64,000 nt of DNA, from contig CAVPPP010000046.1 in the NCBI GenBank assembly GCA_963707005.1, forward strand, positions 111,863 through 175,862. The letters are read 5' to 3'. Made by a program: the position numbers and the translations under genes. The notes under the pieces were generated by a model, which worked only from the letters and a program-made list of their open reading frames with translations, made no database searches and was not told the DNA's origin. Below are positions 10,400-62,772 of this stretch, one piece after another; position 1 is the first letter of the stretch; each line of letters begins with the position of its first letter. The DNA comes from an uncultured Actinomycetota bacterium. Its GTDB lineage: Bacteria > Actinomycetota > Actinomycetes > Propionibacteriales > Propionibacteriaceae.

Positions 10400-12125
10400 A
10401 TGGCTGTTGTGGAACGCACCACTCAGACGGTGGCGGTCACGCCACGCCCCAGCACCCACGGCGAGGTGGTGTGGCGGTGGATGACCACCACCGATCACAA
10501 GGTGATCGGCAACCTGTACTTCGTCACGTCGATGGGTTTCTTCATGTTCGGCGGTGTGCTGGCGTTGGCGATGCGCGCCGAGCTCGCCTTCCCCGGGCTG
10601 CAGTTCCTGTCGTATGAGACCTACAACCAGTTCTTCACCATGCACGGCGCGATCATGCTGCTGCTGTTCGCGACCCCGCTGTTCGCCGGCTTCGCCAACG
10701 CGATCATGCCGCTGCAGATCGGCGCCCCGGATGTCGGCGTTCCCGCGGCTGAACATGTTCTCCTACTGGCTGTACCTGTTCGGCGGCCTGATGGCCTGTT
10801 CCGGTTTCCTGACCCCGCAGGGTGCGGCCAGCTTCGGCTGGTTCGCGTACGCGCCGCTGAGCGACGCGGTCAACTCACCCGGAGCCGGCAGTGACCTGTG
10901 GATCATGGGTCTGTACCTGGCCGGCATCGGCACCGTCCTCGGCTCGGTCAACTTCGTCACCACCATCATCTGTCTGCGGGCGCCGGGGATGACGATGTTC
11001 CGGCTGCCGATCTTCACCTGGAACATCCTGGCGACCTCGATCCTGGTGCTGATCGTCTTCCCGGTGCTGGCGGCGGCGCTGCTGGTGCTGGAGGCCGACC
11101 GGGTGCTCGGGGCGCACATCTTCGACGCGGCCACCGGCGGCGCCATGCTGTGGCAGCACCTGTTCTGGTTCTTCGGACACCCCGAGGTCTACATCATCGC
11201 GCTGCCGTTCTTCGGCATCATCACCGAAGTGCTCCCGGTCTTCAGCAAGAAGCCGGTGTTCGGCTACGTCGGCCTCGTGTCGGCGACGCTGTTGATCGCG
11301 GCCTTGTCGGTGTCGGTGTGGGCGCACCACATGTTCGCCACCGGCGCGGTGAACCTGCCGTTCTTCTCCTTCATGTCCTTCCTGATCGCGGTCCCGACCG
11401 GGGTGAAGTTCTTCAACTGGATCGGCACCATGTGGGGCGGCAACATCACCATGGCCACCCCGATGCTGTGGGCGGTCGGGTTCTTGACCACCTTCCTGTT
11501 CGGCGGCCTGACCGGCGTCATCCTGGCCAGTCCGCCGCTGGACTTCCACGTCACCGACTCCTACTTCGTGGTCGCCCACTTCCACTACGTGGTGTTCGGC
11601 ACGGTGGTGTTCGCGATGTTCTCCGGCTACTACTTCTGGTGGCCGAAGTTCACCGGGCACATGCTGGACGAGCGGATCGGCAAGATCCACTTCTGGATGC
11701 TGTTCGTCGGCTTCCACACCACGTTCCTGGTCCAGCACTGGCTCGGGGTCGAAGGGATGCCGCGGCGGTACGCGGACTACCTGCCCAGCGACGGCTTCAC
11801 CATCTTGAATCAGGTGTCCTCGGTCGGGGCGATCCTCCTCGGCGCGTCGATGCTGCCCTTCCTGTACAACGTGTGGAAGAGCCGCAACAACCCGAAGGTC
11901 ACTGTCGACGACCCGTGGGGCTGGGGTAGGTCGCTGGAGTGGGCCACCTCCTGCCCGCCGCCGCGTCACAACTTCACCTCGCTGCCCCGGATCCGGTCGG
12001 AGTCGCCGACGTTCGACCTGCACCACCCCGAGGTGGCGCTGCAGGAGTATCCGGCCAACGACGCTGATGCGGACGGTTTGGTCGATGCCGGGGACGACGA
12101 GGGCCGAGTGGAGGAGCCTCCATGA
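10400..12125 (+). pseudogene. ctaD: cytochrome c oxidase subunit I (ctaD), +1 frameshift
   Basis: Full-length CtaD with all hallmark motifs ([28 protein letters not shown]). The reading frame switches at ~10736: the sequence reads GATGTCGGCGTTCCCG, whereas the conserved DVAFPRLN would need GATGTCGCGTTCCCG, so an extra G is present. Confidence 0.85.
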
Positions 12126-12210
12126 GCGGATCGACCAGGTCAGCGATGCCCGCGATGAGCCCTAGGGCCGTGACCGCCGTTGCCGAGACACGTCAGGAGG
12201 AAGTGGGACC

Positions 12211-12651
12211 ATGCCCAGAGAGGTGACGGTACTCACCACGGAGGAGTGCCGGACGCTGCTGCGCGATCACCACTTCGGTCGGGTCGCTTTCGTCGACACG
12301 GTCGGAGTGCTGCCACTGATCATTCCCGTCAACTATGTGTGGGCGGATGACGCGGTGGTGTTTCGTAGCGATTCCGGCAGCAAGCTGCGGGCCGCTGCTC
12401 GTGGCGCGCCGGTCGCGTTCGAGATCGATGGCCTCGACCGGGAGCGCCGCATCGGCTGGAGCGTGGTGGTCCGCGGCCACGCGCTGGAGATCACCGATCC
12501 GACCAGAATCGCTGGGCTCGACGAGCTGCCGCTGGTGGCCTGGTCTCCGCGGGAACAGCCGCACTACGTGAGTGTGACCCCGAGCCACCTGATCGGCCGG
12601 CAGATCAGCGTCTTCGGTCTGCCGTCGCACTGGTGGACCGAAAACCCGTGA
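12211..12651 (+). CDS. pyridoxamine 5'-phosphate oxidase (PPOX) family protein
   Basis: MPREVTVLTTEECRTLLRDHHFGRVAFVD... is the typical PPOX/F420-dependent split-barrel N-terminus. Confidence 0.7.
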   Translation: MPREVTVLTTEECRTLLRDHHFGRVAFVDTVGVLPLIIPVNYVWADDAVVFRSDSGSKLRAAARGAPVAFEIDGLDRERRIGWSVVVRGHALEITDPTRIAGLDELPLVAWSPREQPHYVSVTPSHLIGRQISVFGLPSHWWTENP

Positions 12652-12800
12652 TCACCGCAACGCGCGCGCAGCGATACCAACAGCCCGGCATCGCTCTGCC
12701 TTGTCCCACCTTCGCGAGCATCCCCGGCGAGGCGGACCCTCGGCGTTGATGCGCCGGCTGCTGCCTGGATGTTGTCAGCGGTGAAAGGCGGCAGGACAGC

Positions 12801-14454: not shown

Positions 14455-14474
14455 CTGCCGGTGTCTGTCTGACT
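14439..14474. repeat. 18-bp tandem duplication (GCCGGTGTCTGTCTGACT x2)
   Basis: Two exact adjacent copies. The first contains the SPFH stop codon. Confidence 0.8.
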
Positions 14475-14565
14475 AGGGTCGGACAACAACGTCTGCATCC
14501 AGGACCTCAGCTCAACGACACCATGCAGCACAACTACACCTACGGCTTGTTCGAAGGAGCCACCC

Positions 14566-15117: not shown

Positions 15118-15435
15118 CCAGACGCGCGTCGACGGCCGGCTCGGACACCACATTGCCTTTGATCGGTCTCCGCGCATCCCTGTCAACCCCTGCACAAGGA
15201 TGACAGGTCTGGCGGGGCGCGACGTGATTGTCGTTCGATGATCCCCGACGGCTGAACGCAAAGGCTCGCAGTCCGGCGCCGACGACCGTGTGTGCGTGCG
15301 ACATGATCTCCGGCTCTCCGCCTGGCACGGCCTCTGGTTCCCGACCATGGTCCGCCGGGCGAGACGGGCTGATGGTCATGGTGATCAGGATGTGGGGTCG
15401 GGTGGGGGCAGCGCCCCGCCGTCATCCTTCCAGCG

Positions 15436-16101
15436 GTGCAGCTGCTTCGCCGGGACCCTGTCGTCGTCGGCGGCGCCCTCGGTCTCGTAACGGTCCCGGT
15501 GGATCATCTCCGAGGTGAGGTAGTCATACACCTCGTCGTCCACAGCGATGCCATCTCGCTGGTACTCCTGGTGAATGAGCTTTCGGTCTTGTCCTGGGTA
15601 GAGCACGCGGTCGAAACCGCCGTCGAGGCCGGCGCAACACTCATCTGGCTGCCCGAACCGATCATCGCCGCCCACCGCTGCGACCACATCAACACCGTCG
15701 ACATCACCTTGGCTGAGGGGGCACGGTTGATGGTCCGCGAAGAGCTGCTCCTGGGACGGCACCTGGAACCGTCTGGTCGCCTGCGACAACGAACTCGGGT
15801 AACCGCGGACCAGCAGCCACTGTTCCACCAGGATCTCCAGCTGGGCGACCAGAGCAGCCGCACCCCAGCCGTGGCCGCCAACTACCGAGCGGTCGGGTCG
15901 ATCCTGGTTGTCGACCCGGCCTGGACAACCGCGACCCGACCCGCGCCCCTGCGACTGACCGACTCGGCAGCCCTGATGCCGCTGGCCCGAAACGCCGTCC
16001 TCATCAGCGCGGTCGCCGCCGACAGCCATGACCTGCGGACCGTGCTCAACGTGGGCATCGCGGCGCTGGGCCCACCCTGGGACCCACGCCGCCCACGCTG
16101 A
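15436..16101 (+). CDS. UreD/UreH-like urease accessory protein fragment (orphan)
   Basis: Weak match to the UreD core (ATLIWLPEPIIAAHRCDHINTVDITLAEGARLMVREELLLGR...RQRTRVTADQQPLFHQDLQLGD). No other urease genes are present and the N-terminus appears to be missing. Confidence 0.3.
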   Translation: MQLLRRDPVVVGGALGLVTVPVDHLRGEVVIHLVVHSDAISLVLLVNELSVLSWVEHAVETAVEAGATLIWLPEPIIAAHRCDHINTVDITLAEGARLMVREELLLGRHLEPSGRLRQRTRVTADQQPLFHQDLQLGDQSSRTPAVAANYRAVGSILVVDPAWTTATRPAPLRLTDSAALMPLARNAVLISAVAADSHDLRTVLNVGIAALGPPWDPRRPR

Positions 16102-23660: not shown

Positions 23661-24875
23661 GTGGGACATCACCAGCGGGGTTGTGTTGTTGTCGGTGCCG
23701 GGCTAGCCGCCGCGACGACGATCCAGACCCTCCGCGAGGAAGGCTTCGACGATCCCATCACCTTGATCGGTGAAGAGGTCGACCGGCCCTACGAGAGACC
23801 CCCCTTGTCCAAGACGTATCTGCAAGGTCGAGCAGACCTCGCCGAGCTCTACGTGCACCCAAGTGGTTGGTACCACGACCATGCGGTGGACACCCGGTTC
23901 GGACAAACCGCTGTGCAGATCAACCGGAACACCAGGGAAGTGCACCTGCGGGCCGGTCAGGCCGTGGGCTACCAGCAGCTCGTGCTGGCCACCGGCGCGA
24001 GCCCTCGCACCCTCAACTTACCCGGAACCGACCTCGCCGGGATTCACACGCTCCGCACGATCGCCGACGCCAACAACCTGCGGACAGTCCTTACACCGGG
24101 CCGTCGCCTCGTGATCATCGGCGCCGGCTGGATTGGACTGGAAATCGCCGCCGCAGCTCGCATGGCCGACTGCCAGGTCACCGTGCTGGAAGCCGCCACC
24201 GTGCCGCTCCGCAACGTTCTCGGCCAGCGGCTTGGTGAGTACTTCGCCCGGATGCACCGACAACGTGGCGTCGACCTGCGCACCGCCACCCGCGTCCTCG
24301 GCATCCGCGGCCGCGGCGGGCAGGTCACCGGCGTGGACACCGAGTCTGGGCTGATTACGGCGGACGCGGTACTGGTGGCGGTCGGGGCCACCCCGAACAC
24401 CGGCCTCGCCGACGCCGCAGGCCTCCACGTCGACAACGGCGTCGTCGTCGACGACCAGCTGCGCAGCAGCGACAAGACGATCTTCGCCGCAGGCGACGTC
24501 GCCAACGCCGAGCAGCCAGCCCTGGGTAGACGACTCCGGGTCGAACACTGGGACAACGCGATCCGTCAAGGCAACCTTGTCGCCAAGACAATCCTCGGAC
24601 GCAACGACCGCTACGACTGGCAGCCCTACTTCTTCACCGACCAGTACGACCTCGGCATGGAGTACGTCGGCCGATCCGACCCCGAGGACGAGGTCGTCAT
24701 CCGCGGCGACCTGGACGATGGCATCTTCGTCACCTTCTGGACCCGGCACGACACGGTGACCGCCGCCATGAATGTCAACCTCTGGGACGTCAACGACGAC
24801 CTCCGCAGACTCATCGGTCGCCGAATACCAACAGATCGCCTACGCGACCCGACCATCGAACTAGCCGAACTGTGA
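23661..24875 (+). CDS. FAD/NAD(P)-dependent oxidoreductase, ferredoxin-reductase type
   Basis: VVVGAGLAAATT...RPYERPPLSK, a second Rossmann motif LVIIGAGWIGLEIAAAA, and a C-terminal reductase_C-like region. Confidence 0.75.
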   Translation: MGHHQRGCVVVGAGLAAATTIQTLREEGFDDPITLIGEEVDRPYERPPLSKTYLQGRADLAELYVHPSGWYHDHAVDTRFGQTAVQINRNTREVHLRAGQAVGYQQLVLATGASPRTLNLPGTDLAGIHTLRTIADANNLRTVLTPGRRLVIIGAGWIGLEIAAAARMADCQVTVLEAATVPLRNVLGQRLGEYFARMHRQRGVDLRTATRVLGIRGRGGQVTGVDTESGLITADAVLVAVGATPNTGLADAAGLHVDNGVVVDDQLRSSDKTIFAAGDVANAEQPALGRRLRVEHWDNAIRQGNLVAKTILGRNDRYDWQPYFFTDQYDLGMEYVGRSDPEDEVVIRGDLDDGIFVTFWTRHDTVTAAMNVNLWDVNDDLRRLIGRRIPTDRLRDPTIELAEL

Positions 24876-42507: not shown

Positions 42508-42522
42508 GAACGGGTCGGCTCC

Positions 42523-44467: not shown

Positions 44468-44568
44468 CGAGACGCCGAGTTCCAGGGAGAACCGAAACGA
44501 CTGCGGCGACGCCATGAGTTTCGCAACCTCAACCGTTGCTGTCGACCAGCGACTGTGGATCCACATCG

Positions 44569-49169: not shown

Positions 49170-49990
49170 TGACGACGGCGATCATCGTGGGACTGACCCT
49201 GCTGGTCGTGGCGATTCTCGCCTTGGCCACATCAATGCGGGTATTGCGGGAGTACGAGCGAGGCGTCGTCTTCCGACTCGGCCGCCTACAGACCCTCTAC
49301 GATCCAGGGCTGCGAAGGGTACTTCCCGTCGTCGACCGGATGATCAAAGTCGATCTCCGGTTGGTGACGCTGACGATTCCGCCACAAGAGGTCATCACCC
49401 GCGACAACGTTCCGGCGCGCGTCAATGCTGTCGTGCTCTTCCGCGTCATCGATCCGGTCAAGTCGGTGATGGAGGTGGAGAACTTCGCCGTTGCCACCTC
49501 GCAGATCGCTCAGACCTCACTGCGGTCGTTGCTCGGCAGGGTCGATCTGGATACGTTGCTCGCCCATCGGGAGAACCTGAACGAGGACTTGGCCACGACC
49601 ATTGCGGCGCAGACCATGCCGTGGGGCGTCGAGGTCAGGGTGGTGGAGATCAAGGATGTGGAGATTCCCGAAGCGATGCAGCGGGCCATGGCCCGGGAGG
49701 CGGAGGCAGAGCGCGAACGTCGGGCGAAGATCATCAACGCCCGCGGGGAGCTCCAGGCTTCCGAGGAACTGCGCCAAGCTGCCGAGATCCTGAGCCGCAA
49801 TCCGGCTTCGCTGCAGTTGCGCTACCTGCAAACTCTGCTCGAGCTCGGCGCTGACCAGAACTCCACGGTGGTCTTTCCCCTGCCCATCGACATCGTCGGC
49901 CCGTTCCTGAACAGCATGGTCCACAACGACGTCAGCAAGACGGTGGAGAGAGCCACATCGGCGACCAACGGGACCGAGGTTCCACGGTGA
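49170..49990 (+). CDS. SPFH/band-7 (stomatin-like) protein
   Basis: RVLREYERGVVFRLGRL...ITRDNVPARVNAVVLFRVIDP...EAERERRAKII. AGAGGAGAA RBS. Paralogue of 13480..14454. Confidence 0.8.
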
Positions 49991-50205: not shown

Positions 50206-51592
50206 GGCAGGGGTTTGGAGGCTCTTCAGAATCGAGGGTGTAGTCGGGGTCTGAATCCGCCGGCTTCGAGTAGGCATCGGGCGATGTAGTTGGTGAGGTT
50301 GCGGAAGCCGAGGGCTGAGCCGCGGAGGTGTTCGAGCCGGCCGTTGATCGCCTCGGTGGGTCCGTTGCTGGCTCCGGGCCGGTCGAAGTAGGCCAGCACG
50401 TCGACGGCCCGCTTCTTCAGCGTGCGGCCGAGGGTGATCAGCTCGGTCAGCGGCTTCGGCACCCCGTGGCTGAGCGAGTCGATCAGCTTGACCATCAGCT
50501 GGCGGCCGCGGACTCGGTCGGGTTGCCGGTAGGCGGTGATCATGCGCTGGTAGATCCCCCAGGCCGCCTCGACCTGGACATGGGCGTCGTCGGCGAACAA
50601 TGTTTCGAGCCGCTGCTGCTGTTTGTCGGTGAGCAGGTCGACGCCGGTGTGGAGGGTGCGGCGGGCTCGGTAGAGCGGATCGTTCGGCGCGGCCGCGGTG
50701 ACCGTGGATGATCTGCTGGATCCGGCGGCGACATCGGTCGAGGGCGTCGCCGGCGAGGCGGACGACATGGAACGGGTCCATCACCGCGACGGCGTCGGGC
50801 AGCTCCTCGGCGGTGGCGGTCTTGAACCCGGTGAACCCGTCCATCGCGACGACCTCGATGCGGTCACGCCACGCCGCTGGGCGTTCGGCGAGCCACTGCT
50901 TGAACGCTTGTTTGGAACGACCTTCGACCATGTCGAGCAGCCGGGCCGGGCCGGTGTGGTCGCGGACCGGGGTCAGGTCGATGATCACGGTGACGTACTT
51001 GTCGCCGCGGCGGGTGTGCCGCCAGACGTGCTCATCGACCCCGATGACGGCGACGCCGTCGAAGCGGTGCGGGTCGTCGATCAGCGCGCGTTGCCCTTCG
51101 GCGAGGACGGCGTTGTTGGCGGTGTTCCACGACACCGCGAGCCCTTCGGCGACCCGGGCCACGGTGAGGTGCTGCACCACCAGGCCCTCCAGCGCCCACC
51201 GCAGCCCGCGGCGGGACAGCTTCGCTCGCGGCTCCGCGGCCCGGCTGGTGTCTTGGCGCCACACATGCCGGCACTCGCTGCAGCGGTAGCGGCGGACCGT
51301 GACGTGCAGGCTGGTGGGTCGCCACCCGAACGGCTCGTGCGCCAGCCGGCGGATCACGGTGTCGCGCGGGACGCCTTGGCAGCCGCAGCGGTGGCACCAG
51401 TCGTCGGGGTCGACGACCCGGCACGCCAGCACGGCACGATCAGGGTCGAGGCGTTGCCCGGTCACGACGAGGCCGAGCTCGTCGAGGCGGCAGAACACGG
51501 TCAGGTCAGGGCAGCCGAAAACGGCATCAGGGGTAGCGTCAGTCACCGTCGAGGTCTTCCAGATGGGTCGAGTGTGAGAACTTCCATCTTCG
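50206..51592 (-). mobile_element. ISL3-family insertion sequence (transposase frameshifted)
   Basis: The transposase at 50226..51546 matches the ISL3 N-terminal zinc-ribbon/HTH, the DDE region and the GFRNLTNY C-terminus. The frame breaks near 50700 between ...IIHGHRGRA and PNDPLYRARR. Imperfect terminal inverted repeats: GGCTCTTCAGAATCGAGGGTG (~50206) and CACACTCGACCCATCTGGAAGACC (~51569). Confidence 0.75.
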
Positions 51593-51914
51593 GGAGACCT
51601 CGACGCCTACCCAGCCATCGACGCGCCGACCTCTACACCCTCAACTGCGAAGAGCCGTCAGTGGTGCTGTAGACAAACCGTTGTGAGGAGCACGCTGAGC
51701 GACCGGCCGCCAGGCAGTTCGTCGCACCCGGAATGTTGCACACGCGCTCTCAACTACCGCCGCGCGAGACCGCCTGCGCACTTGGCGACCCTCTCGAGTG
51801 GAGTCGTAGATCTGGCGCGGCCAATCTGGAGGCCTGGCCCATCGAGGGCGCCAGGTCCTTGCCGGAGGCAGATTCAACGGCGGCGTCCTGTACGGCGCTC
51901 CCAGTTGCTGAGTT

Positions 51915-52847
51915 TCATCTCGTAGTCCATGCAAACTTTGACCTCGTCGTAGCGGACGAAACGCTGGTGATCAGCATCTGGTCGGCCCCATCGTACTTGT
52001 CGAAGGAGTGGAAGAACGGAGGGATGGTTCCAGGAGAGACATCGCTCAATAGGTAGAACTTGCGATCAGGATCCTCCTTCGTTGGCGTCCATCTTAGATC
52101 TCCGTCGTCACCACCACGCTCAGGTGTAAATAGAAGGACTGGGTGGGTTGACTCGTTTACGCCGTCGACCAGTGTGTCCACTGAAATCACGTACCCTGGC
52201 CCCGTATAGGCGTAGGGAACTGGAAGGTACTTCCACTTGTAGTTGTCAGCACCGTCTAGCAGGATGCCCTCCGATGCATCGTCCTGGATGGCATCTGAGG
52301 GTGTCTTGCAGCCCCGCGATCCTGAAGGAAAGATTGGGATCGGTTCATCAGCGCTGCTGGTGTCCGAGCTGTCTGACGAGGAGGTGTCGCGATCTTCGGT
52401 CTGAGTCCTGGTCTGACCGGAGGTGTCGTAGGAACCAGTATCGGATACCGCGCTCTCGTTCAGCTTGTAGCCAACCCAACCGAAGAAGGCCGCTCCTGCA
52501 AGGGTCAGAGCTGTGCACACTACCCCGATACCGATTAGGGCCTTTGACCAGACTGGCAACCTCGCCGCCTTGATGGAGCTTCCCAGGGTTTGCGCAGACA
52601 TTGACGTCGTTGGCTCAACTGGCCGTTGATAGACGATCCTGGGGTTGAGGACGGTCGCATCCGGGTCGACATCCTGTGTCAGGGTCTCAGGCTCGTCCTC
52701 CTGGACCGCAGGCTTGCTCTTGGGACTCTTGTCCGGGGTGATCCACATGATCAGTCCTGCGAGCAGTCCGATAGCACAAATGACGAGGAAAACCTTGAAT
52801 GGCACGTGGATGTGGATTCGGCCAATGGTGTCGACGAGGTGGAGCAT
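51915..52847 (-). CDS. hypothetical two-TM envelope protein with Ser/Asp-rich linker
   Basis: AAGGAA RBS. Two TM helices, an acidic Ser/Thr-rich low-complexity segment and a ~150-aa C-terminal domain. Lower GC (~55%). Confidence 0.6.
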   Translation of the reverse strand: MLHLVDTIGRIHIHVPFKVFLVICAIGLLAGLIMWITPDKSPKSKPAVQEDEPETLTQDVDPDATVLNPRIVYQRPVEPTTSMSAQTLGSSIKAARLPVWSKALIGIGVVCTALTLAGAAFFGWVGYKLNESAVSDTGSYDTSGQTRTQTEDRDTSSSDSSDTSSADEPIPIFPSGSRGCKTPSDAIQDDASEGILLDGADNYKWKYLPVPYAYTGPGYVISVDTLVDGVNESTHPVLLFTPERGGDDGDLRWTPTKEDPDRKFYLLSDVSPGTIPPFFHSFDKYDGADQMLITSVSSATTRSKFAWTTR

Positions 52848-53076
52848 CCATTTCCTTCATGATCGAGGCTCAGTCATCGTCGACAGTCGGCGCTTCGTGA
52901 GTCGGGCTGTAGCGGGTTGACCTCCGGAGGGGAAGTCACAGCATCATCTCGTTTGAATGACTCTGCCGGGTGAAACTCACCATATTTGGCTGGTAGGCTG
53001 CGGGGTCTCCCATCAAGCGCGGCGTAGCGATTGGTCAATCAGGCCGAAGAGCCATCGCAATAGGGACCGTTGATCG

Positions 53077-55155
53077 TCACCCAGTCTTCCTGTACATCGG
53101 CGGTGCATCCGCGTAGACGCTGCCCTGCTGATGGTTGTAGAGAATGACGAGACGGTCTCTTTGCCTGCGGTGATCCGAGCTGTAATCAGGATCACAGGAG
53201 GCCAGGTTGAAGTCTTGGCGGGCAGCGGTCGGACAGTTCCACGTCACACCTGACGGAAAGAATGCGAGGTAGATAGACGCCGCGACCGGGCACGAGCCGT
53301 CGTCCAGGCAGATTGTGTAGGTGCGTGCACCTGACACGGGCCAATCCGCAGCGGTTTCCCCAGCGTGCGCGTCCGGCCATTTGTCAAGCACGTTGCTGAG
53401 GCTGAAGCAGTTCTTCTCGTCGACTGCCTCGTTGTCAGGTATCGGGGTTCCTTGCGTACACCACATCCCCTGCAGGTCGTCGGCGAATACACTGTCGCGC
53501 CGCATGGCTTCGCCTACGATTCGAGCGGCCTTGCTGTCTGACCAGTCCGTGATCAGGAACTCGGCCAGGCCCGCCAGATATCTCGACGAGCACGCTTGCA
53601 GTGGCTCGACAGCCTTCGCTGCTGCAGCTTTGAAGCCTGAGAGCTGCCAGAGTTCTTTGCTGGTGTCTGCGAACTCGTCCCGCAGGGCGAGGTTGCGGTA
53701 TAGCCGGTCGGAGTCAGTTGCCCGCGACCGACAGGAGGGTTGCCAGTCTCCGAGCCCTTGCGGTCGGCCACGGCCATTGATTGACCACGAGAGGGGCCCG
53801 ACAAGATTGTTTGCGAACTGGTCGGAGGCGTAGAAAGCCAATTCGCCGACCGTCAGGATTTTGAACTTTCGGGAGATTTCGCGGGTAAGCCGGTTGGCTT
53901 GGATCGCGGCTGATCGCGAAAGCCCAGACTTCGCAATCGCACGCCGCGACAGCGTTTCAAATCGAGCGCCGAACTCACTGTCAGGGCGCAGCAACTCGCC
54001 GGCGCATTCCCCAATAGAGTGCACGACCGCGGAGATGAGCTCAGAACCATCGGTGAGGTTAGAACGTTTGAGCAGCGCCTTCCCACCGCACTCGTAGAGG
54101 GCCTGCAACATTGCGTTGACGGCTGGATTCTCCTGACCACCGACGTTCGCCTGCCCGAACCCGTAAGCAACCACGTCGACAAAGAAGCTGACGCCGTCGG
54201 CCTTGGCCTCCGCGGCGATGTGGTAACTGCCAGGGTTGGCCGGCCGTGCAACCCCGACCGCCCCGGTGAACAGTGGTGGCATCAGAAAGTGTTCGTCGTC
54301 GTCGAGAACTAGTCGGGCCGTCGAGTAGACGATGGCTGGAACGTCGAAGCGGTCGTCGCCCGGCCATGTCCAAGCCCAGCTCTGATCTCCGTCGGTCATG
54401 GTGAGTCGCTGCGTGAAGGTCCGGTTGTTGGCGATTCGGACGGTCACCCGTTGGCTTTCGTCTGGCTCGAAGCAGACTCGTATAGCAGCCTCATCGAGGT
54501 CTTCGTCGGGATCGACGACGTGGTCGACCCATGCTGGTAGTGGTCGACCTGAGCAAGTGGGAGCCTTCACACGGCTGCCCACAACCTCACCAACGGTCTG
54601 ACCCAGGTTCGCCAGCCACGTCACGACCGAGAACTTCGACACCTCCGCGGTGAGCGTGGTGCCTTTCCAGTGATGATCGACGGCCTCCAGCGGCTCCCAG
54701 ACATGCTTCTTGTCGTTCCAGTGCACGAGGATCAGCGTGGCGCGCTGAAGGTCGGTGAGCTCAGGAAGCTTCCACGACAAGGAAAGCGGATGGCGTAGTG
54801 GCTGGTTGTGCTCGACGCTCACAGGACGTCCGCCGACCTCGGTGGCAAAAGGGCCGACGACAGTACCGACTGGCTTGCCAATCCTCACTTCGATGCTGGT
54901 GTCCGCCGCGACTGTCTTGCCCGGTACATCGACGGTGACACCAGATTCGACCACTGCCCCGCCAGTGTGGTCAATCCGGTGGCCCTGATCGGGCAGTACA
55001 GGCTCGGGGTCGGCACCCAGCTCGGCAGACTGCGTTGTCGCAGTGGAGGGCGGAGGAGGCACAGGGGTCGGTTGGAGCGTGCAAGCTCCCGCCAGCATCG
55101 CGAGACTGATGGTGACGAAGAGCGCTGATCGGCGGAGCATTGGGCCTCCATACAT
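53077..55155 (-). CDS. large secreted (lipo)protein, function unknown
   Basis: 692 aa. N-terminal signal peptide MLRRSALFVTISLAMLAGAC with a probable lipobox Cys. No recognisable catalytic motif. GC ~60%. Confidence 0.65.
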   Translation of the reverse strand: MYGGPMLRRSALFVTISLAMLAGACTLQPTPVPPPPSTATTQSAELGADPEPVLPDQGHRIDHTGGAVVESGVTVDVPGKTVAADTSIEVRIGKPVGTVVGPFATEVGGRPVSVEHNQPLRHPLSLSWKLPELTDLQRATLILVHWNDKKHVWEPLEAVDHHWKGTTLTAEVSKFSVVTWLANLGQTVGEVVGSRVKAPTCSGRPLPAWVDHVVDPDEDLDEAAIRVCFEPDESQRVTVRIANNRTFTQRLTMTDGDQSWAWTWPGDDRFDVPAIVYSTARLVLDDDEHFLMPPLFTGAVGVARPANPGSYHIAAEAKADGVSFFVDVVAYGFGQANVGGQENPAVNAMLQALYECGGKALLKRSNLTDGSELISAVVHSIGECAGELLRPDSEFGARFETLSRRAIAKSGLSRSAAIQANRLTREISRKFKILTVGELAFYASDQFANNLVGPLSWSINGRGRPQGLGDWQPSCRSRATDSDRLYRNLALRDEFADTSKELWQLSGFKAAAAKAVEPLQACSSRYLAGLAEFLITDWSDSKAARIVGEAMRRDSVFADDLQGMWCTQGTPIPDNEAVDEKNCFSLSNVLDKWPDAHAGETAADWPVSGARTYTICLDDGSCPVAASIYLAFFPSGVTWNCPTAARQDFNLASCDPDYSSDHRRQRDRLVILYNHQQGSVYADAPPMYRKTG

Positions 55156-55214
55156 AGCTGATCAAGATCAGTCCGGCAATTGTGTGCGGGCTGGCGGACG
55201 GTGAAGCGGCAGGC

Positions 55215-57356
55215 TCAGTGATCCATGCAGGTTCTAGCGTCGTCCATGTAGGCGCGCACGACTGGGCGATAGCGCATAAGCAGCCCGTCCTTCGGCCATG
55301 GGTTGATGTTCAGCTCTTCCGGGGAGTCAAGAGACGCCCACGTACGGTTCGACACGGCGCCGATCCCCTTCATCGAATCTCCATCAGCTGTCGCTGCGGT
55401 TCGCCAGACACCTGTGGCGTAGAGGTCTGGCTGTCCGTTGCTCGGTTCAATCTTGTAGGTGACCGCCACGATGTACTGATCGGTGTCGTACATGCCCTCG
55501 CTCGCTGGCATCGGGGCGACTCCGACGTCGACAGATGTGAAGGTTGCCTGCTCGCCGAAACGCTTGGTGTATTCGTTGACCATGTCACCGGTCCAGGACT
55601 CTGGTGCGCCGGGGCCGCTGGTCATCTGGGTGGTGACGTCTTGACCGATCACCAGGCAGCGCTGCGCCCGTTTCAGCGTGGGTGGATAGAGATCAACGTT
55701 TGTCTTGGATGGGTACTCGTACTTTTCGTTACCTGACTTCACCGTGGCATCGACCTGGTTGAAGTAGAGGCCGATTGCCAAGAGCATCGTCATCCCGATC
55801 ACGATCACACCGACGACGCCGCCGATGACGATCGCCAAGACCTTGCCAGTGCCCAGGCCCCTCCGGTCCGCAACGGTAACCGGGGGAATCTCTACGGTGT
55901 CAACAAGCGACTCCACATCGACAGAATTGGAACCGGGACCGGAACTCAGAGCAGCGCTGGAGACGTCTGCTTTGTCCGCGCTGGACTCGTCCGCGCCATC
56001 GCCCGTCGGGGAATTGTCGCCCATGCCGCCAGCGGCATCATCATTCCCGACCTTTCCAACCAGCCGCGAGACGAGGTCTTTGCCGGTCAGCTTCAACACG
56101 GTCCAGTTGATGAAGGCGAACACAAGGCCAATGAGGAACAGCACAGCGATGCCGGCGACACCTACGACGAACCTGAAGGCTCCACGAGGAAGGTTGTCCA
56201 AGAACTGCTCGGCGGCGTTCCAGGCTGTGCTGAACCAACTTGGACCCCCTCCACTGCGGTACTCCTGCTCGGCGGGGTACTGGCCTGACGGGTTCTGCGC
56301 TTCCCGAGTCCGGTCGCCGACCGTCGGTTCGCCTGACGAGTTTGGCGCTGCGCCGGCGCCAGTCTGCTCGTCTTGGTCGTCATTGTGGGAGCTGCTGCTC
56401 GCCTCATCGCTGGGCGCAGAACTCTGCTCGGACTGTGATGAATTGGATGATCCTGATGGGCCTCCTAGCTCGCGCAGAAACACTCGTAGCGTTGAAGTCT
56501 CTGTCACGTGGATAGATCGGGCATCGCTTGCCGACTCCGCCAGGATCCCGACCAATTCATCGTCGGCATTCATTACGGGTCCGCCAACTGCCGTGTGGGG
56601 GAGGGCACTGGACCCGATCATGTCAACGAGCCGCGTGCCCATCCCAACGTTCTCGCCGAGCGTGCCCGTCTTGCTCTTGCGGACTTCCTTGCCACCGCTG
56701 TACTCACCGTAGAAGTACGCCTTTACCGCGGCGCCGGTCTGAGCATCGGTATCAGAGATTGTGAGATACGGAGCCTTCACACCCTCGACGCGCAGTACGG
56801 CTATGTGACTGTCTCGCGCCTTCTCGTACGCAGACGTCAAGGCAGAACCGCGTGCAGCGAGATCTGGAGTCTCGATAGTGACCGAGCTATAGGGGATGCC
56901 CACCGGATACTGGTTGCTGCCAATCAGGACTCCCGGAGACGAGGCACCACCAGACACCGTCGCATCAGCAAGCCTGCGGTCCTGGTGAGCGAAGTCTTTG
57001 CCCACCGAGCTGTAATCCGAAATCTGATCGGCAAAGTCCTTCTCCAGCGCCTCCCTGACCAACCAGGACTTGGGGTCGAAGCAGGTAGACGAGCTCACTA
57101 TGGTCCCCGTGTCGACAAAGGTGCCCGTGCACCGCACGGTGGCGGTCAACGTCCCCTCAACGGCAGGATCGTTGCTGGCCTTCGCCGGCCAGGTCCCAGA
57201 CTGCTGCCAAGTCACCTCCACGAACGTCGTGGCCTTCTTCAAGGTCACGGCTGCCTTCGCGGACGGTGCTGCGGTGACTGCGCAGGCCGGGGCCAGCATG
57301 AGCGCGATCAAAGCAAGCAGAGCGCGCTTCATCGCCAGGGTGACGGTGGTGGGCAT
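55215..57356 (-). CDS. signal-peptide S1 (streptogrisin-like) pseudoprotease domain, two TM helices and a C-terminal extracytoplasmic domain
   Basis: Signal peptide MKRALLALIALMLAPACAVTAAPSAKA. The following domain aligns to the chymotrypsin/alpha-lytic fold (CTGTFVDTGTIVSSSTCF ... DSHIAVLRV ... ALPHTAVGGPV...LVGILAES), with the catalytic His and Ser positions substituted. A Ser-rich linker, TM1, a Gly/Asp-rich loop, TM2 and a ~190-aa C-terminal domain follow. Confidence 0.6.
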   Translation of the reverse strand: MPTTVTLAMKRALLALIALMLAPACAVTAAPSAKAAVTLKKATTFVEVTWQQSGTWPAKASNDPAVEGTLTATVRCTGTFVDTGTIVSSSTCFDPKSWLVREALEKDFADQISDYSSVGKDFAHQDRRLADATVSGGASSPGVLIGSNQYPVGIPYSSVTIETPDLAARGSALTSAYEKARDSHIAVLRVEGVKAPYLTISDTDAQTGAAVKAYFYGEYSGGKEVRKSKTGTLGENVGMGTRLVDMIGSSALPHTAVGGPVMNADDELVGILAESASDARSIHVTETSTLRVFLRELGGPSGSSNSSQSEQSSAPSDEASSSSHNDDQDEQTGAGAAPNSSGEPTVGDRTREAQNPSGQYPAEQEYRSGGGPSWFSTAWNAAEQFLDNLPRGAFRFVVGVAGIAVLFLIGLVFAFINWTVLKLTGKDLVSRLVGKVGNDDAAGGMGDNSPTGDGADESSADKADVSSAALSSGPGSNSVDVESLVDTVEIPPVTVADRRGLGTGKVLAIVIGGVVGVIVIGMTMLLAIGLYFNQVDATVKSGNEKYEYPSKTNVDLYPPTLKRAQRCLVIGQDVTTQMTSGPGAPESWTGDMVNEYTKRFGEQATFTSVDVGVAPMPASEGMYDTDQYIVAVTYKIEPSNGQPDLYATGVWRTAATADGDSMKGIGAVSNRTWASLDSPEELNINPWPKDGLLMRYRPVVRAYMDDARTCMDH

Positions 57357-58236
57357 TGCCGGAAATCCTTACGTGAAGAGACTATGGAAAGTTCGGGGGT
57401 GATGGCGGTGGTGCCAGCCATACCGGAGCCAGACGCTAGGTGTTCATCGCACGTACGGGCCCCGGTAGCTACTCCACGATGCCCAACAGCGTGCCGTGAA
57501 AATGGCGCCCTTATTACTGGCGCCAACTTGCTTGCTGGTGAGGTTGGCGTCGCTCATGCGCTGCGTTGCGTACCTGGTAGACACCTTGGTGTCCGCCTGC
57601 GCTCTATCAGCAGTCGCTGCCGCCAGGCTCCCGACCGCAAACGCCGAAGCGCCAGTCCACACAATCGCCTCGCTCGCATATGGTCCCCGAATGTCACGAC
57701 GGAGCCCCCGTTTCGCCTGATGACGTCGGAGCGTAGCGAAGATCAGCCGACGCAGTGGACACTTCACACACTTCAGTGCAGCATTCGGAATATTTCGCGC
57801 TCCTCTGCCGCGTGTCGCACAAGTCGTCCGGGTCGCGGGCCGGTCGACACACTGGTCGTGCCCAAACCGCGTGTGGTCAGGGTGGTTGCCATATGACAGT
57901 CCCGACATAATGCCCGGTGAGGGGACGTCGTGCGGAGACGTCGGCAGGGAGACGTGGCGGAAGGCGGCGCCGCACGATCGAGATGCGTCGCTGGCGAGTG
58001 CCGACGCGAGGGCGATCGTCGGGACCTGTACGACAAGTGCCTGTCATTAGGGCGGCCTATCGGACGGCGCTAGGAACTCAGCTCCTAGGGATGATGCTTT
58101 TGCCAAAAGGCGTCTATGAGGTCCGTGCCGAGCGGAGGTGAGATTTCGACAGACAATGCGCATCACCAGATTCCGAGTACGGCCCAGGCGATGAGGCTGT
58201 CGAGCCTTCGGACGTCGCGACACCATTAAGCACCGC

Positions 58237-58623
58237 TCAGCCGATGCAGTGCCCTCCGACCGGTGACCACATGACGCCGTCCGAGGTGTAGGGAGCCGGA
58301 GTGGACAGCCAGTGATCGGAGACGTACCACTGGCCGCGGGCCTCCAGCACCTTCCACCAGATGGTGTTGCCGTTCGATCCCACGCCCGGACCTCGCACCC
58401 AGCACGACACGGGCACCTCCACTCCTTCGCGGGCGCCGAAGCCGGTGACGGAGGCGCCCGGCGAGTTCCGCCAGCCGACACCCATGCCGCTGGTGCGTTC
58501 CACAGTCGGGGTGCAGTCCCAGGTCGGGCACTGCGGATCGGCGTGAGCTGCCTTGGTCGGGCCGGCGAGGACGGCGGTGACGGCCAGCGCGGACGCTGCC
58601 CACGCGATGATCTTGTTGCTCAT
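58237..58623 (-). CDS. secreted SH3b-like small protein
   Basis: AAGGAG RBS. Signal peptide MSNKIIAWAASALAVTAVLAGPTKAAHA. Mature ~100 aa with four Cys and an SH3_3-like pattern (VEVPVSCWVRGPGVGSNGNTIWWKVLEARGQWYVSDHWL). Confidence 0.55.
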   Translation of the reverse strand: MSNKIIAWAASALAVTAVLAGPTKAAHADPQCPTWDCTPTVERTSGMGVGWRNSPGASVTGFGAREGVEVPVSCWVRGPGVGSNGNTIWWKVLEARGQWYVSDHWLSTPAPYTSDGVMWSPVGGHCIG

Positions 58624-58800
58624 GGCGAACTCCTTCAGATGGTGAGCGGACAAAGACATACTGGAGAAGTCGCCGCTCCCGAGCCAAGCGTTCTTTGTCC
58701 GTCCGATGACCGGTGACGCGTCCGGTTGATCGGACGGACACCCTTGAACCCTTGAGGACTAGACGGCTCCGCTCGCCCTGCCCGACCCGCTTGCTGGCGC

Positions 58801-59589
58801 TCAGCAGCTCATCAGAGCGGTGCGCCCCGGGCCGGGCGCGTAGGCCTTCGACAGGTTCGTGTAGAGGTCCGGGACCCAGGTCCCGTCGTCGAGCCGGTTC
58901 CAGACGGGCCAAGTCAGCTGCTCACCGTCGACGACGTCGGTGAGCCGCTCGCCGGCGCCGTCCTGACAGACCACCCGAATCGTGGCTCCCTCGGACAGGG
59001 CGGCCACCTTGCCGCTCTTCCGGTTCGGTCCGGCGTAGGTGCTGACGCCCAGTCCGGCGGTGTTCGCAACGGTCGAATCCGTGGTCGACGGAAGCGTCGC
59101 CGGAGTCGCTGGGAACGCCGACCAGCGACCCACCAGGACGCCCGCAGCAAAGAGCAGGACGGCTGCGACTATCCCGACGAAGGCACGTCGCCGCCGGTGT
59201 GCGGGTCGCCGTTGCGGGGTCGGCTGCGTCAGCCCGACCGGAGTGTCGAGCTGGGGGAGCGCTTCGGCGCTCGAGCTGATGAGTGGGTCCAGCGGCTCCG
59301 CTGCAGAAGACGTCGCCGGGTTGCTCAGGCGCTCTCTGCGACGGGTCCACTCCTCGATCTCGGGCGGTTGCGCGTCGGCCACCGTCAGCAGATCCTGCAG
59401 CTGGTCGGCCGATGGCAGCCGCCTGCCGGTGGTGATGTCATGAACGGTGGTTCTGCCCCAGCCCGAGCGGCGGGCGAGCTCGCGTACCGACAGCGCCGAC
59501 AGGCGTTCCCGCAGGTCGGCTGCGAACTGCTCACTTGGCTCAGCTGGCGGCTTCTCGGCTTCCGGTTCCGGGGACGTCTCGATGGTCAC
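58801..59589 (-). CDS. membrane-tethered XRE-type HTH regulator with extracytoplasmic SH3b-like domain (RodZ-like topology)
   Basis: HTH LSVRELARRSGWGRTTVHDITTGRRLPSADQLQDLL, a single TM AFVGIVAAVLLFAAGVLVG, and a C-terminal SH3b-like region (GATIRVVCQDGAGERLTDVVDGEQLTWPVWNRLDDGTWVPDLYTN). GTG start at 59589 assumed. Confidence 0.55.
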   Translation of the reverse strand: MTIETSPEPEAEKPPAEPSEQFAADLRERLSALSVRELARRSGWGRTTVHDITTGRRLPSADQLQDLLTVADAQPPEIEEWTRRRERLSNPATSSAAEPLDPLISSSAEALPQLDTPVGLTQPTPQRRPAHRRRRAFVGIVAAVLLFAAGVLVGRWSAFPATPATLPSTTDSTVANTAGLGVSTYAGPNRKSGKVAALSEGATIRVVCQDGAGERLTDVVDGEQLTWPVWNRLDDGTWVPDLYTNLSKAYAPGPGRTALMSC

Positions 59590-60234
59590 GGGCGTGCCTT
59601 TCCGACACACTCGCCCCGACCTCCGCCTCCGCTCGGTCCGACCCGAGACAGCGGGCGCCAGATCGGTTAGGCTCGTAGAGTTCCGGCAAGAACCTCGACG
59701 ACCCCGTGCCAAGTGCCGACCTCCCGGTTAGCGCTCGCTACACGGGGTCGACGTGCGTCTGAGTCCTGATCTTAGTGCCGGGGGCGGATTCCGTATCGAC
59801 CTACAGTTGACAGGTTTCGGACATGTCCAGAACCGGACAATTCACCTCTGGAGCGATCGCGCCTGGATGGTGCGTTCGCCGCCATTCCCGATGCGCCAGT
59901 GCGCCCTAGGCGAGTCCGCGCTCGCGCTTCTCGGGGGCATAGGTCCGGACCGGCGGCCGGCAAACAGCGGCTCGCCGAGCACGCGGTACTTGAGCTCGAC
60001 GCCGCGCCAGCAGTGCGTCGACGCCGACCACTCCGTTTCCGTCAGGGCGCGCGGTCACAGATCTCCGGTCTGTCACGCGTGGACCCGGAACTTCACCGTC
60101 CGGACGCGTCCGGACGGACAGTTCCGTCAGTTCCGGACACCGCACTACCCGCTGCAGGGTGACATCACGACCTGCCGTCAGGCAGCGACCCCGAGCCAGG
60201 TTGGCTCGCGGAAGTCCATGAAAGGACGGCTCTG

Positions 60235-60795: not shown

Positions 60796-60927
60796 GACTG
60801 CCTTGTGAACAACCAGCAATGCGTCGACAACAGTCGGGCACCTGGCGGCAGGTTCGGATGCTCGGACATACGGCGGCTTATCGGCTTTGGAGAGAAAGGG
60901 CCCGCGGGACCATTGCTCCTGTTGTGG

Positions 60928-61584
60928 TCAAGGCTGGTTGGCGTCGTGGACCAAGATCGCGATCTGTACGCGGTTGGCGACATTGAGCTTGTTGAGCAGG
61001 CGTGACACGTGGGCTTTCACGGTTGCCTCGCTCAGGAACAGGGCGGCAGCCACTTCCGCGTTGGAGGCCCCGGACGCGACTGCGGTGGCGACCTCACGTT
61101 CGCGGTCGGTGAGGGCGGCAAGTCGGTCGGCCGCGGCCCTCTGTCGTTCTGAGGCTTCGATGTTGCCCAAGTGGGACAGCAGGGTACGGGTGACCGATGG
61201 GGAGATGATCGCGTCGCCGGTGGCGACGACACGGACCGCGTTGATGATCTCGGCGGGTGGCGTGTCCTTGACCAGGAAGCCGCTGGCACCGGCTCTCAGG
61301 GCATTCATCACCATGTCGTCGGCCTGGAAGGTCGTGAGGACGATGACGTGCGGCGGTCGGTCGAGCCGTCGCAGCGCGGCGGTGGCGGTGATGCCGTCCA
61401 TCTCGGCCATCCTGATGTCCATCAACACGACGTCGGGTCGGTGTTGGCGGACGGCCGCGACTGCGCGGGTTCCGTCGTCGGTTTCGCCCACCACGTCGAT
61501 GTCGTCGGCGGAGGACAGGATGATCCTCAGACCTGCTCGGACGAGGGCGTCGTCGTCGACCAGCAGGACTCTCACCGTCACCAT
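60928..61584 (-). CDS. NarL/LuxR-family response regulator
   Basis: Receiver (VLLVDDDALVRAGLR...DVVLMDIRMAEMDG) plus LuxR HTH (LTDREREVATAVASGASNAEVAAALFLSEATVKAHVSRLLNKL). The ATG overlaps the kinase stop. Confidence 0.85.
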   Translation of the reverse strand: MVTVRVLLVDDDALVRAGLRIILSSADDIDVVGETDDGTRAVAAVRQHRPDVVLMDIRMAEMDGITATAALRRLDRPPHVIVLTTFQADDMVMNALRAGASGFLVKDTPPAEIINAVRVVATGDAIISPSVTRTLLSHLGNIEASERQRAAADRLAALTDREREVATAVASGASNAEVAAALFLSEATVKAHVSRLLNKLNVANRVQIAILVHDANQP

Positions 61585-62772
61585 GGCAGGTCGGCCTGCA
61601 CCACGAAGTCGCCCGTCCGTCGGGACCGTGCACGAGGGTGCCGCCGGCGAGGTCGACGCGTTCTCGGAGGCCGAGCAAGCCGGCGCCGGACCCTGGCAGG
61701 GCCGGCCCGGACTGGGCGCGCGCCGGGTGTGTGTTGCGGACGTTGATGTGGAGGCCGTGGCCGGGGGCGCCGGTGAGGCCGACGTGCGCCTGCGAGCCGC
61801 TGGCGTGTTTGCCGATGTTGGTGAGAGCCTCTTGCACGATCCGGTACGTGTCGCGGGCGAGTGCGCCGGGGACGTCGTCGGCGTGGTCCACCCGCAGGTC
61901 CAGGCTGATCTGCGCACCTGCCCGGCGGGTGTCGTCCACGAGCCGGGGGATGTCTGCCAGGGTCGGCTGTGGCACTGGCGGCATCACGTCTGCCGTCACG
62001 TGCGACGCTCGCGTAGCACCCCGATCACCGTCCGCAGCTCCTCGAGGGCCTGACGTGCGGTCAGACGCATCAGTTCGGCGGTCGCTCGCACCTCCGCCGA
62101 GGGCAGGTCAGGTCGGACCTCCAAGGCTCCAGCGTGCAACGCCAGCAGCGAGATCCGGTGCCCGAGCACGTCGTGCATCTCCCGGGCGATCCGGGTTCGC
62201 TCGGCCATCCGTGCGCGGTCCTCGTGCTGGCGCTGATCGGCTTCGGCCCGTTGCGCGCGGTCGCGGAGGCTGTGCAGCAGCTGCCGGCGAGCGCGGATGA
62301 ACATCCCCCATGCGGTGACAGCGAGCACGATCGGGACGACTCGGACAAGCACGGCCAGCGGATCGGTGGTCGGGCTGTAGAGCGCGAACACCAGGACCGA
62401 CGGCACCCACAGTCCAGCGACCAGCAAGGCCCGCCGGGCCGGAGCGTGCACGGCGAGCGAGAACTGGGCGAGCAGCCCGGCAGGAGTGGCCGAAATCGAC
62501 AGGGTCCCCAGCAACAGGCAGCAGAGTGCAACGCCGACCGGCCAGCGGCGTCGCCACCACAGCGAGACAACGGCTAGCACCCCGCAGGTCACGTCGATCG
62601 CAAGCTGCGCGCTCGCCAGCCCGGCGCCGCTGCGCAACGTCGGGCTGATGAACAGGGCCCCGAGGGCGGCAGCCACGACGCATCCGGCGGCGTCGACCGC
62701 GCGGTCGCGTCGAGATGGCGCGGTCGAGCCCGTGGCGAGATCTTCCGAATCCAGGAGCGCCGCCGCCCTCAC
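61578..62772 (-). pseudogene. NarL-type (HisKA_3) membrane sensor histidine kinase, two -1 frameshifts
   Basis: Four N-terminal TM helices and an H-box MAERTRIAREMHDVLGHRISLL. Frame break at ~62000 (...VLRERRT / TADVMPPVPQPTLADIPRLV). ATPase domain DTYRIVQEALTNIGKHA...GAGLLGLRERVDLAGGTLVHGPDG. Second break ~61600 in a G-run, after which GDFVVQADLPW* is read in another frame. Confidence 0.7.

Follow-up and report, generated by a model that had tools for sequence, protein, structure and literature searches.

The window analyzed here, a stretch of 64,000 nucleotides, is part of a 175,862-bp NCBI/ENA contig from a MAG of a Microlunatus aurantiacus-like soil actinobacterium. A sequence-only reading of this DNA had listed 12 places at which conserved genes change frame, and all 12 frame breaks were found to be present in the sequence by a codon-usage HMM, Pfam profiles, and tblastn. 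The HMM was self-trained and calls same-strand frame jumps. It placed these at 10736, 34191, 37793, 39828, 42746, 42864, 46364, 47457, 50701, 61607, and 62006, that is, at the sites already listed, with the exception of mrpG (~38590). Five further breaks were added, in ctaD (12117), a P-type ATPase (31715), a 202-aa membrane protein (10148), a 209-aa gene (49140), and a 324-aa gene (51948), to give a total of 17 one-base indels across 13 genes, every one of them a +1 or −1 event. By tblastn, 8 of the 40 window genes with close orthologues were broken. The long ORFs that had been called intact were indeed so, the 692-aa ORF corresponding to a 687-aa gene after correction of its start. HMM frame changes at 9193, 21499, 28036, 46053, and 48515 were rejected as frameshifts, being ordinary gene boundaries.

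The relatives used as references comprised eight contigs at 98.4 to 98.8% identity, six at 95%, one at 93%, and five at 93 to 96%, the last group including the isolate genome GCA_039536605. The ctaD gene, encoding cytochrome oxidase subunit I (10400-12166, + strand), contained extra bases at 10735 and 12117, and the Pfam COX1 profile was matched from 2 to 86 in one frame and from 74 to 436 in the next. Both insertions were private to the window when compared with seven to eight relatives, all of which had an intact 587-aa ctaD, and deletion of the two extra bases gave a product of 587 aa. The protein was 99.8% identical to those of the relatives over residues 113 to 572 and 97.4% identical over the first 115. 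The 202-aa membrane-protein gene (~9704-10314, + strand) carried an extra C at 10148 that was private against 7/7 related contigs at 98.4 to 98.8% identity, with the frame change also seen by tblastn. Over the 10.6-kb ctaD region, 77% of which is coding, three of the six private indels were inside genes, and no obvious avoidance of coding DNA by window-private indels was observed. The window-private substitutions in the same region were 18 synonymous to 6 nonsynonymous, with a ratio of 5:2 in ctaD itself.

The P-type ATPase gene (31654-34409, + strand) had an extra C at 31715 and an extra G at 34191, and Pfam Cation_ATPase_C was matched at 2 to 112 and 115 to 174 in different frames. Neither insertion was present in any of six JGI contigs, each of which encodes an intact 917-aa protein, the same length as the repaired window gene. 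For the TetR-family regulator (42523-43142, + strand), reading by tblastn ran through frames 1, 2, and 3 owing to an extra A at 42752 and an extra C at 42872. Both were absent from L096, the single useful contig from the JGI metagenome scan, in which the ORF is intact at 205 aa, and repair of the window gene likewise gave 205 aa. In the cytochrome P450 gene (39119-40265, + strand), the reading frame shifted by +1 at some point from 39835 to 39846. With the P450 of contig L083 as the tblastn query, residues 81 to 321 were matched in frame +2 and residues 325 to 463 in frame +3, and Pfam p450 matched the C-terminal part of the gene. The NarL-type sensor histidine kinase (61590-62772, − strand) contained two −1 breaks, at ~62005 and ~61607, with HisKA_3 and HATPase_c placed in different frames by Pfam. 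At ~61607, one G was absent from a GGG run, in agreement with the G-run named in the sequence-only reading, and the C terminus of the kinase (…GDFVVQADLPW, followed by the stop) was found in the third frame, directly overlapping the start of the response regulator.

Two extra bases, a T at 46364 and a C at 47455, were located in the gene for the quinol-dependent nitric oxide reductase (qNOR; 46192-48539, + strand). Pfam COX1 was matched from 2 to 124 and then from 131 to 409 in a second frame, and tblastn with close orthologues required frames 1, 2, and 3. The insertions were private against 5/5 loci, including that of the M. aurantiacus isolate genome, and the repaired protein was 782 aa, the same length as P0121. 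Window-private substitutions in qNOR were 31 synonymous to 3 nonsynonymous, and all but one lay downstream of the first break. Hence, a real qNOR frameshift, if any, would have arisen within about the final fifth of the private branch, although a very recent event is compatible with this test of selection. In the adjacent 209-aa gene (48542-49172, + strand), an extra G at 49140, near the 3′ end, put the gene in frame with the downstream Band_7 gene. This G was an insertion relative to L084 to L087, and its removal restored 209 aa, as in M. aurantiacus.

The closest comparison was provided by the independent Logan contig L081, which was 99.92% identical to the window over 8,515 bp, with five mismatches, three of them within the last 55 bases of L081. 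One base was missing from the window at 51948, which truncated the 324-aa gene of unknown function (51877-52847, − strand), and a second at 52929, in an intergenic C-run. L081 contained both bases and an intact 324-aa ORF. L081 is the sole truly same-strain comparison, covers two indels, and the block it matches may be a mobile island.

The mrpE gene (37560-38077, + strand) had a +1 break at ~37795, with the MNHE profile matched from 2 to 85 in one frame and from 77 to 144 in the next, and no mrpA-D genes were seen upstream of it. In mrpG (38430-38650, + strand), a break at ~38568 separated PhaG_MnhG matches at 10 to 54 and 54 to 80 in different frames, and the mrpF region just upstream appeared to be multiply shifted. 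Positions 38070 to 39107 were scored by the HMM as noncoding, without a stable coding frame, and the mrpG break was visible in Pfam but unflagged by the HMM. The orphan mrpEFG segment adjoins a rearrangement junction. On the − strand, an ISL3-family transposase (50229-51546) contained a +1 break at ~50700, with the DDE_Tnp_ISL3 profile matched from 1 to 107 in one frame and from 109 to 239 in another. A Usp/DUF3040 remnant at 43.4 to 44.4 kb had no intact ORF in either the window or the short-read contig L096, which differed there by 9 small indels and 20 mismatches. The accessory island showed real structural decay in the form of the orphan mrpEFG, a dadA fragment, and the Usp remnant. Elsewhere, a ureD stump at 15.4 to 16.1 kb was left by a 7.1-kb deletion. 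Indel clusters at 3047 to 3600 and 43433 to 44351 were rejected as evidence of error, as they were intergenic or fell in the remnant, in which every strain lacks an intact ORF, and they were partly common to contig L092.

The sites in the mrpEFG tail, in the ISL3 transposase, and in the Usp/DUF3040 remnant are a minority that could be real pseudogene lesions. Under such a mixed explanation, most breaks would be assembly errors, with these three segments reflecting genuine decay of DNA that was already useless. The absence of mrpA-D, the position at a rearrangement junction, the lack of a stable coding frame at 38.07 to 39.1 kb, and the density of small indels in the remnant speak for it, and decay of IS copies is common. 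However, the mrpEFG and ISL3 breaks, for which there is no close reference, were indistinguishable from the error class elsewhere, and a single repair each was sufficient to restore read-through in mrpE and in the transposase. The mixed explanation is considered possible but rather doubtful.

Comparison with the relatives was possible for 12 coding indels, whereas mrpE, mrpG, ISL3, and the first of the kinase breaks had no close reference. All 12 were unique to the window, and the ORF was intact in every relative, the isolate genome included; apart from L081, however, the references are different strains (93 to 98.8% identity), so that privacy would also be expected of real lineage-specific mutation. 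Deletion of the identified bases alone gave products of 587, 782, 917, 205, and 209 aa, equal to the lengths in the relatives and free of internal stops. The JGI short-read contigs contained each broken gene they cover in full-length form, and the five natural small indels in the JGI lineage were all intergenic or at gene ends.

The exact repaired forms of ctaD, qNOR (two start variants), TetR, the 209-aa protein, the ATPase, and a 141-aa form of the membrane protein were absent from a collection of 15 billion proteins. This absence was uninformative because intact private variants of the window (dadA and an FAD-monooxygenase) were likewise confined to the source contig. Similarly, the exact cupin, response regulator, and ferredoxin of the window had no match in an exact-protein look-up of encoding contigs, and a GTDB genome scan with the FAD-monooxygenase found no close genome, the best amino acid identity being 81%.

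Programmed recoding, in which the frame would be recovered in vivo by ribosomal frameshifting or by slippage during transcription, was also considered. Programmed frameshifting is used by some IS families and is known in IS transposases and prfB, and the window resembles these cases in having single +1 or −1 shifts in otherwise continuous coding sequences, one transposase included. Beyond the size of the shifts, nothing favored this explanation. The junctions lacked a slippery run, their contexts were unrelated and nonrepetitive, and the sites were private to one contig rather than conserved. Unrelated housekeeping genes were affected, and the orthologues of ctaD, qNOR, the ATPase, TetR, and the 209-aa protein were single frame in every relative. 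ISL3 transposases, moreover, are normally encoded by a single ORF. On this sequence evidence, programmed recoding is effectively refuted, and the likelihood assigned to it is close to nil.

The sequence-only reading had left two explanations side by side, indel errors in the assembly and a true, striking loss of genes for respiration, NO detoxification, ion pumping, and signaling. Our data support the former and not the latter. Real loss would have to be very recent pseudogenisation, with selection just lost on many genes, for example through a bottleneck or a change of niche. In its favor, the indels are part of the sequence as deposited and, like new mutations, are private to the lineage. 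The ratio of coding indels to substitutions, ~1:8 to 1:17, is near a possible neutral expectation. The events were also unevenly distributed, with coding frameshifts absent from the interval 12.2 to 31.7 kb (Poisson P ~0.005) and 12 events between 31.7 and 52 kb, in or near the accessory island in which structural decay is real, ureD representing further real decay. Against this, 49/58 pooled window-private substitutions from qNOR and the ctaD region (84%) were synonymous, far above random, with 9 nonsynonymous, and this held downstream of the breaks as well. The ratios of synonymous to nonsynonymous substitutions in the ATPase (103:42) and TetR (19:11) were similar to that of an intact neighboring gene (27:18), giving no sign of relaxed selection. 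Neither nonsense substitutions nor larger in-gene lesions were seen in the broken genes, and no lesions were shared with relatives. The core gene ctaD was struck twice, yet its protein was otherwise nearly identical to those of relatives, and the indels appeared even against the 99.9%-identical L081.

Sister assemblies provided a further argument. The ENA "contig_N" contigs L092 and L083 and the proteins P0247, P0251, and P0003 had their own private one-base indels elsewhere in the same or neighboring genes, with seven in 10.6 kb in L092 alone. Judging from contig naming and source only, these were probably assembled in the same way as the window. Since each of three to four other clade assemblies has private breaks of its own in these genes, recent pseudogenisation would require recurrent independent loss, and we regard it as very improbable. 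That a free-living soil Microlunatus lineage inactivated its aa3 oxidase subunit I, qNOR, P-type ATPase, P450, regulators, and sensor kinase by one-base indels, in a burst too recent for its substitutions to have lost the signature of purifying selection, is likewise very improbable.

The frame breaks are, with considerable confidence, attributed to consensus indel errors of metagenome assembly rather than to real gene loss. One-base insertions and deletions would have entered the consensus at scattered positions when the contig was assembled or polished. Noisy long reads of modest coverage, or reads from several strains mixed together, are their most likely source, and a gene containing such an indel would appear frameshifted. 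Because the indels would be scattered, the longer genes would be struck most, as is the case for the ATPase, qNOR, and ctaD with two breaks each. We infer that the contig is of long-read origin and that the reads would not support the indels. In the organism itself, ctaD, qNOR, the ATPase, P450, TetR, and the kinase are almost certainly intact. The natural baseline is in keeping with an excess of indels: M. aurantiacus strains at 99.5% identity differed by 74 single nucleotide polymorphisms (SNPs) and one 1-bp indel, which was intergenic, compared with 32 window-private SNPs and 6 indels (Fisher P = 0.006). Where measurable, the indel rate in the window was ~0.2 to 0.7 per kb.

Reductive genome evolution with mass pseudogenisation is exemplified by Mycobacterium leprae. 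The window is similar in that it comes from a high-GC actinobacterium and contains numerous interruptions of conserved genes, with some real remnants nearby (ureD, dadA, and mrpEFG). It differs in that its lesions are one-base indels only, with no nonsense mutations, relaxed dN/dS, or lesions common to relatives, and in that its broken genes are 95 to 99.8% protein identical to intact orthologues. The window also resembles long-read-only assemblies (Nanopore or PacBio CLR type), in which assembly-private one-base indels split conserved genes, the longer ones more often; the sister assemblies here break elsewhere, and the substitutions still look selected. It is known that gene calls become fragmented by indels in the consensus of long-read assemblies and that ~40× coverage is needed for near-finished quality (PMC9262707, PMC12007338), and a large set of Nanopore-only soil MAGs with the same contig naming as here was polished with Medaka only (PMC12313526).

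Taken at face value, the breaks would lead to annotation of a genome with no aerobic terminal oxidase, no means of NO detoxification, no ion pump, and no two-component sensor, and this might be read as genome decay. Recognition of consensus errors guards against such wrong conclusions on metabolism and against false counts of pseudogenes. The contig, and probably the whole MAG and its sister MAGs, would need polishing or frameshift-aware annotation before analysis of gene content. The breaks do not point to any new biology.

Errors concentrated in homopolymers are the textbook signature of Nanopore data and the classic one of Nanopore R9, 454, and Ion Torrent data. The possibility raised earlier that the breaks fall in homopolymers was mostly not borne out, as a base run was touched only at 61607, 52929, 43148, and 12117, ~4/22 resolved indels. 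This lack of concentration argues against that type of error but not against consensus error in general. The window also departs from the textbook pattern in that insertions dominate in genes: 14/17 coding events were extra bases, whereas 4/5 noncoding events were missing bases (Fisher P = 0.02). No convincing common motif was found at the insertion sites, except that several C insertions occurred in a T_G context.

Frames along the window were segmented with a codon-usage HMM, for which the long ORFs of the window itself served as training set. Direct same-strand frame jumps were placed at 10736, 34191, 37793, 39828, 42746, 42864, 46364, 47457, 50701, 61607, and 62006. These match the sites of the sequence-only reading, which had reported 12 single-base breaks in conserved genes, with the exception of mrpG; the HMM found no stable frame at 38070-39107, and the mrpG break rests on Pfam. 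Several further HMM frame changes were ordinary gene boundaries and were rejected as frameshifts. By Pfam, a domain carried on in another frame in ctaD and qNOR (both COX1), the ATPase (Cation_ATPase_C), mrpE (MNHE), mrpG (PhaG_MnhG), and the transposase (DDE_Tnp_ISL3), while HisKA_3 and HATPase_c of the kinase lay in differing frames. By tblastn with close orthologues, the P450 gene passed from frame +2 to +3 at 39835-39846, and TetR and qNOR each occupied three frames. The true C terminus of the kinase, 'GDFVVQADLPW*', needs an added G in a GGG run at ~61607 and overlaps the start of the response regulator. Taken together, the codon HMM, Pfam, and tblastn confirmed all 12 breaks as real features of the sequence.

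Relatives were gathered by protein searches and exact look-ups. The window has a G+C content of 66%, and the nearest proteins to its own were from Microlunatus and other Propionibacteriaceae; qNOR shared 98% protein identity with M. aurantiacus WP_344811725 and 93% DNA identity with the genome of the same isolate. Comparison was made with eight contigs at 98.4-98.8% for 2.8-16.1 kb (seven JGI metagenome contigs and the ENA contig L092), six JGI contigs at 95% identity for the ATPase surroundings, one JGI contig, L096, for the FAD-monooxygenase and TetR genes, and five loci at 93-96% for qNOR, the M. aurantiacus isolate genome among them. For 51614-60126, the Logan contig L081 (99.92% identity) was used, the sole effectively same-strain reference, which covers a low-GC, possibly mobile block. 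In exact-sequence look-ups, the window-specific variants of dadA, the FAD-monooxygenase, and a 186-aa protein were found on one single contig, deposited at NCBI and ENA; the window thus belongs to this contig, which probably derives from a metagenome-assembled genome and is absent from the GTDB species representatives.

In every case compared, the relative's ORF was intact. Relative to these sequences, the window had one extra base at 10148, 10735, 12117, 31715, 34191, 42752, 42872, 46364, 47455, and 49140 and one base missing at 51948. Five breaks were newly recognized by this comparison: second breaks in ctaD (12117) and the ATPase (31715), and breaks in a 202-aa membrane protein (10148), the 209-aa gene after qNOR (49140), and a 324-aa gene (51948). 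The sum was 17 one-base events in 13 genes, with 8 of the 40 window genes having close orthologues broken. Removal of the extra bases gave products of 587 aa (ctaD), 782 aa (qNOR), 917 aa (ATPase), 205 aa (TetR), and 209 aa (the 209-aa gene), the same lengths as in the relatives and with no internal stops. JGI short-read contigs from many samples carried the full-length form of each broken gene they covered, and programmed recoding was effectively excluded. L081 differed from the window by five mismatches, three of them within its last 55 bases, and did not share two of the window's one-base deletions, including one by which a gene is truncated. For sites beyond the cover of L081, a truly new mutation would be expected to show such privacy (presence in the window only, with absence from the compared relatives) just as well.

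In the window's lineage, private substitutions were very largely synonymous. qNOR had 31 synonymous and 3 non-synonymous changes, a set of which only one lay upstream of the first break, and the 10.6-kb ctaD region had 18 and 6, respectively; the pooled figure of 49/58 synonymous is impossible under neutrality. The broken ATPase and TetR genes showed a substitution pattern resembling that of an intact neighboring gene, and no nonsense substitutions or larger lesions were present in any gene. In the ctaD region, which is 77% coding, three of six private indels were mid-gene. Given the synonymous excess and the absence of nonsense changes and larger lesions, the substitutions had been filtered by selection and the indels had not. 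For qNOR, this test sets only one bound: a frameshift, if real, would date from about the final fifth of the private branch. As a natural baseline, M. aurantiacus strains (99.5% identity over 22 kb) differed by 74 SNPs and one 1-bp indel, in an intergenic A-run, and additionally by two repeat indels of 21 and 22 bp; the window, with 32 private SNPs and 6 private indels, departed from this ratio (p=0.006). Five natural small indels in the JGI lineage were all intergenic or at gene ends.

Sister assemblies carried private one-base indels of their own. L092 had seven across the 10.6-kb ctaD region, with an ACT-domain gene and a cupin gene split as a result, and private insertions in contig L083 fused qNOR to downstream genes, yielding the 989-aa protein P0247. 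P0251, encoded on an ENA contig of 64 kb, was a qNOR stump of 165 aa, and P0003 was a 714-aa ctaD product with its tail out of frame. All the contigs concerned were from ENA, being either named in Flye style ('contig_N') or recorded at ENA only, which points to an indel pattern that tracks assembly and not lineage. Since one ENA assembly includes both L092 and L084, a clean contig of 642 kb, the error load is suggested to vary with the depth of each population. Because other ENA/NCBI contigs of the clade carry such private indels, its protein clusters in public databases include artefactual lengths.

Given selection, the L081 differences, the assembly-linked pattern, and the much lower natural baseline, consensus indel error in the assembly was favored and very probably accounts for the frame breaks. 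Of the two explanations originally offered, assembly indels are thus the better supported, whereas recent real pseudogenisation now seems quite improbable. Consensus indels that split genes are a described artefact of long-read assemblies (PMC9262707; PMC12007338); about 40x coverage is required for near-finished quality from Nanopore-only assemblies (PMC9262707; also PMC12007338), and for one large collection of soil MAGs from Nanopore data alone, polishing consisted of a single Medaka round (PMC12313526). The breaks are of exactly the kind described in this literature (PMC9262707; PMC12007338), and a known kind of artefact, not a biological feature, is their best explanation.

A homopolymer origin, which the sequence-only reading had proposed checking, was not borne out: the indels were mostly outside homopolymers, with ~4/22 resolved events touching a base run. 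Extra bases made up 14/17 coding frameshifts; in contrast, 4/5 window-private non-coding indels were missing bases (Fisher p=0.02). Among the resolved indels, five were C insertions in a T_G context. No coding breaks were detected at 12.2-31.7 kb (~15 kb of coding DNA) and 12 were at 31.7-52 kb, a spacing less even than a Poisson model predicts (p about 0.005). An 18-bp tandem duplication at 14456-14475 (CTGTCTGAC-type repeat), just 3' of the Band_7 gene and absent from 7/7 relatives spanning the site, looks like natural repeat-unit variation.

A 15.7-kb block (29743-45472) contains the ATPase, mrpEFG, P450, cupin, FAD-monooxygenase, and TetR genes and a Usp/DUF3040 remnant. M. aurantiacus is without it, 29743 being joined straight to 45472. 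Because JGI relatives share the part with the ATPase and the DAO fragment, the block was considered a genuine island, not a product of misassembly. The 3' part of dadA forms a 97% direct repeat, with one copy (29122-29421) just outside the left edge and the other (36328-36627) within the block, where it divides the block together with the DAO fragment at 36206-36910; this duplicated fragment is real local decay. So is the orphan operon tail of mrpE, mrpF, and mrpG (37200-38850): it is not preceded by mrpA-D, antiporter domains are lacking directly downstream of the dadA fragment, and the mrpF stretch (38070-38400) shows several apparent frame changes. The mrpE, mrpG, and ISL3 transposase breaks could likewise be real local decay. 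The remnant at 43433-44351, which has its paralogues in the Usp and DUF3040 genes of 27470-28290 (73-75% DNA repeats), differed from short-read contig L096 by nine small indels and 20 mismatches, with an intact ORF in neither, and is probably a real decayed duplicate.

At 15385-16098 (junction 15619|15620), JGI relatives have a 7.1-kb insert encoding ureABC, a cobW-like gene, phospholipase D, and Ldh_2. Of ureD, the window retains just a 3' fragment (Pfam UreD profile 46-159 of 201); judged from this comparison, the deletion is real, with the urease cluster lost in the window's strain. The low-GC block (0.59-0.62) at 51614-60126 adjoins the ISL3 transposase, and its 99.92%-identical counterpart came from Logan sample ERR11554255. 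Its 713-aa protein had weak matches to a trypsin-like peptidase and, in the protease part only, to PADLOC RT-Protease_XI; also encoded are an XRE-type regulator and proteins of 687 and 324 aa that matched no Pfam family. The block is a candidate mobile or defence island. The gene beside TetR (41320-42504) was ruled out as a ferredoxin reductase; it encodes an FAD_binding_3 monooxygenase, probably of 392 aa with a GTG start at 41329. The true ferredoxin-reductase-type gene (Pyr_redox_2 and Reductase_C) lies at 23661-24872, and both genes are intact.
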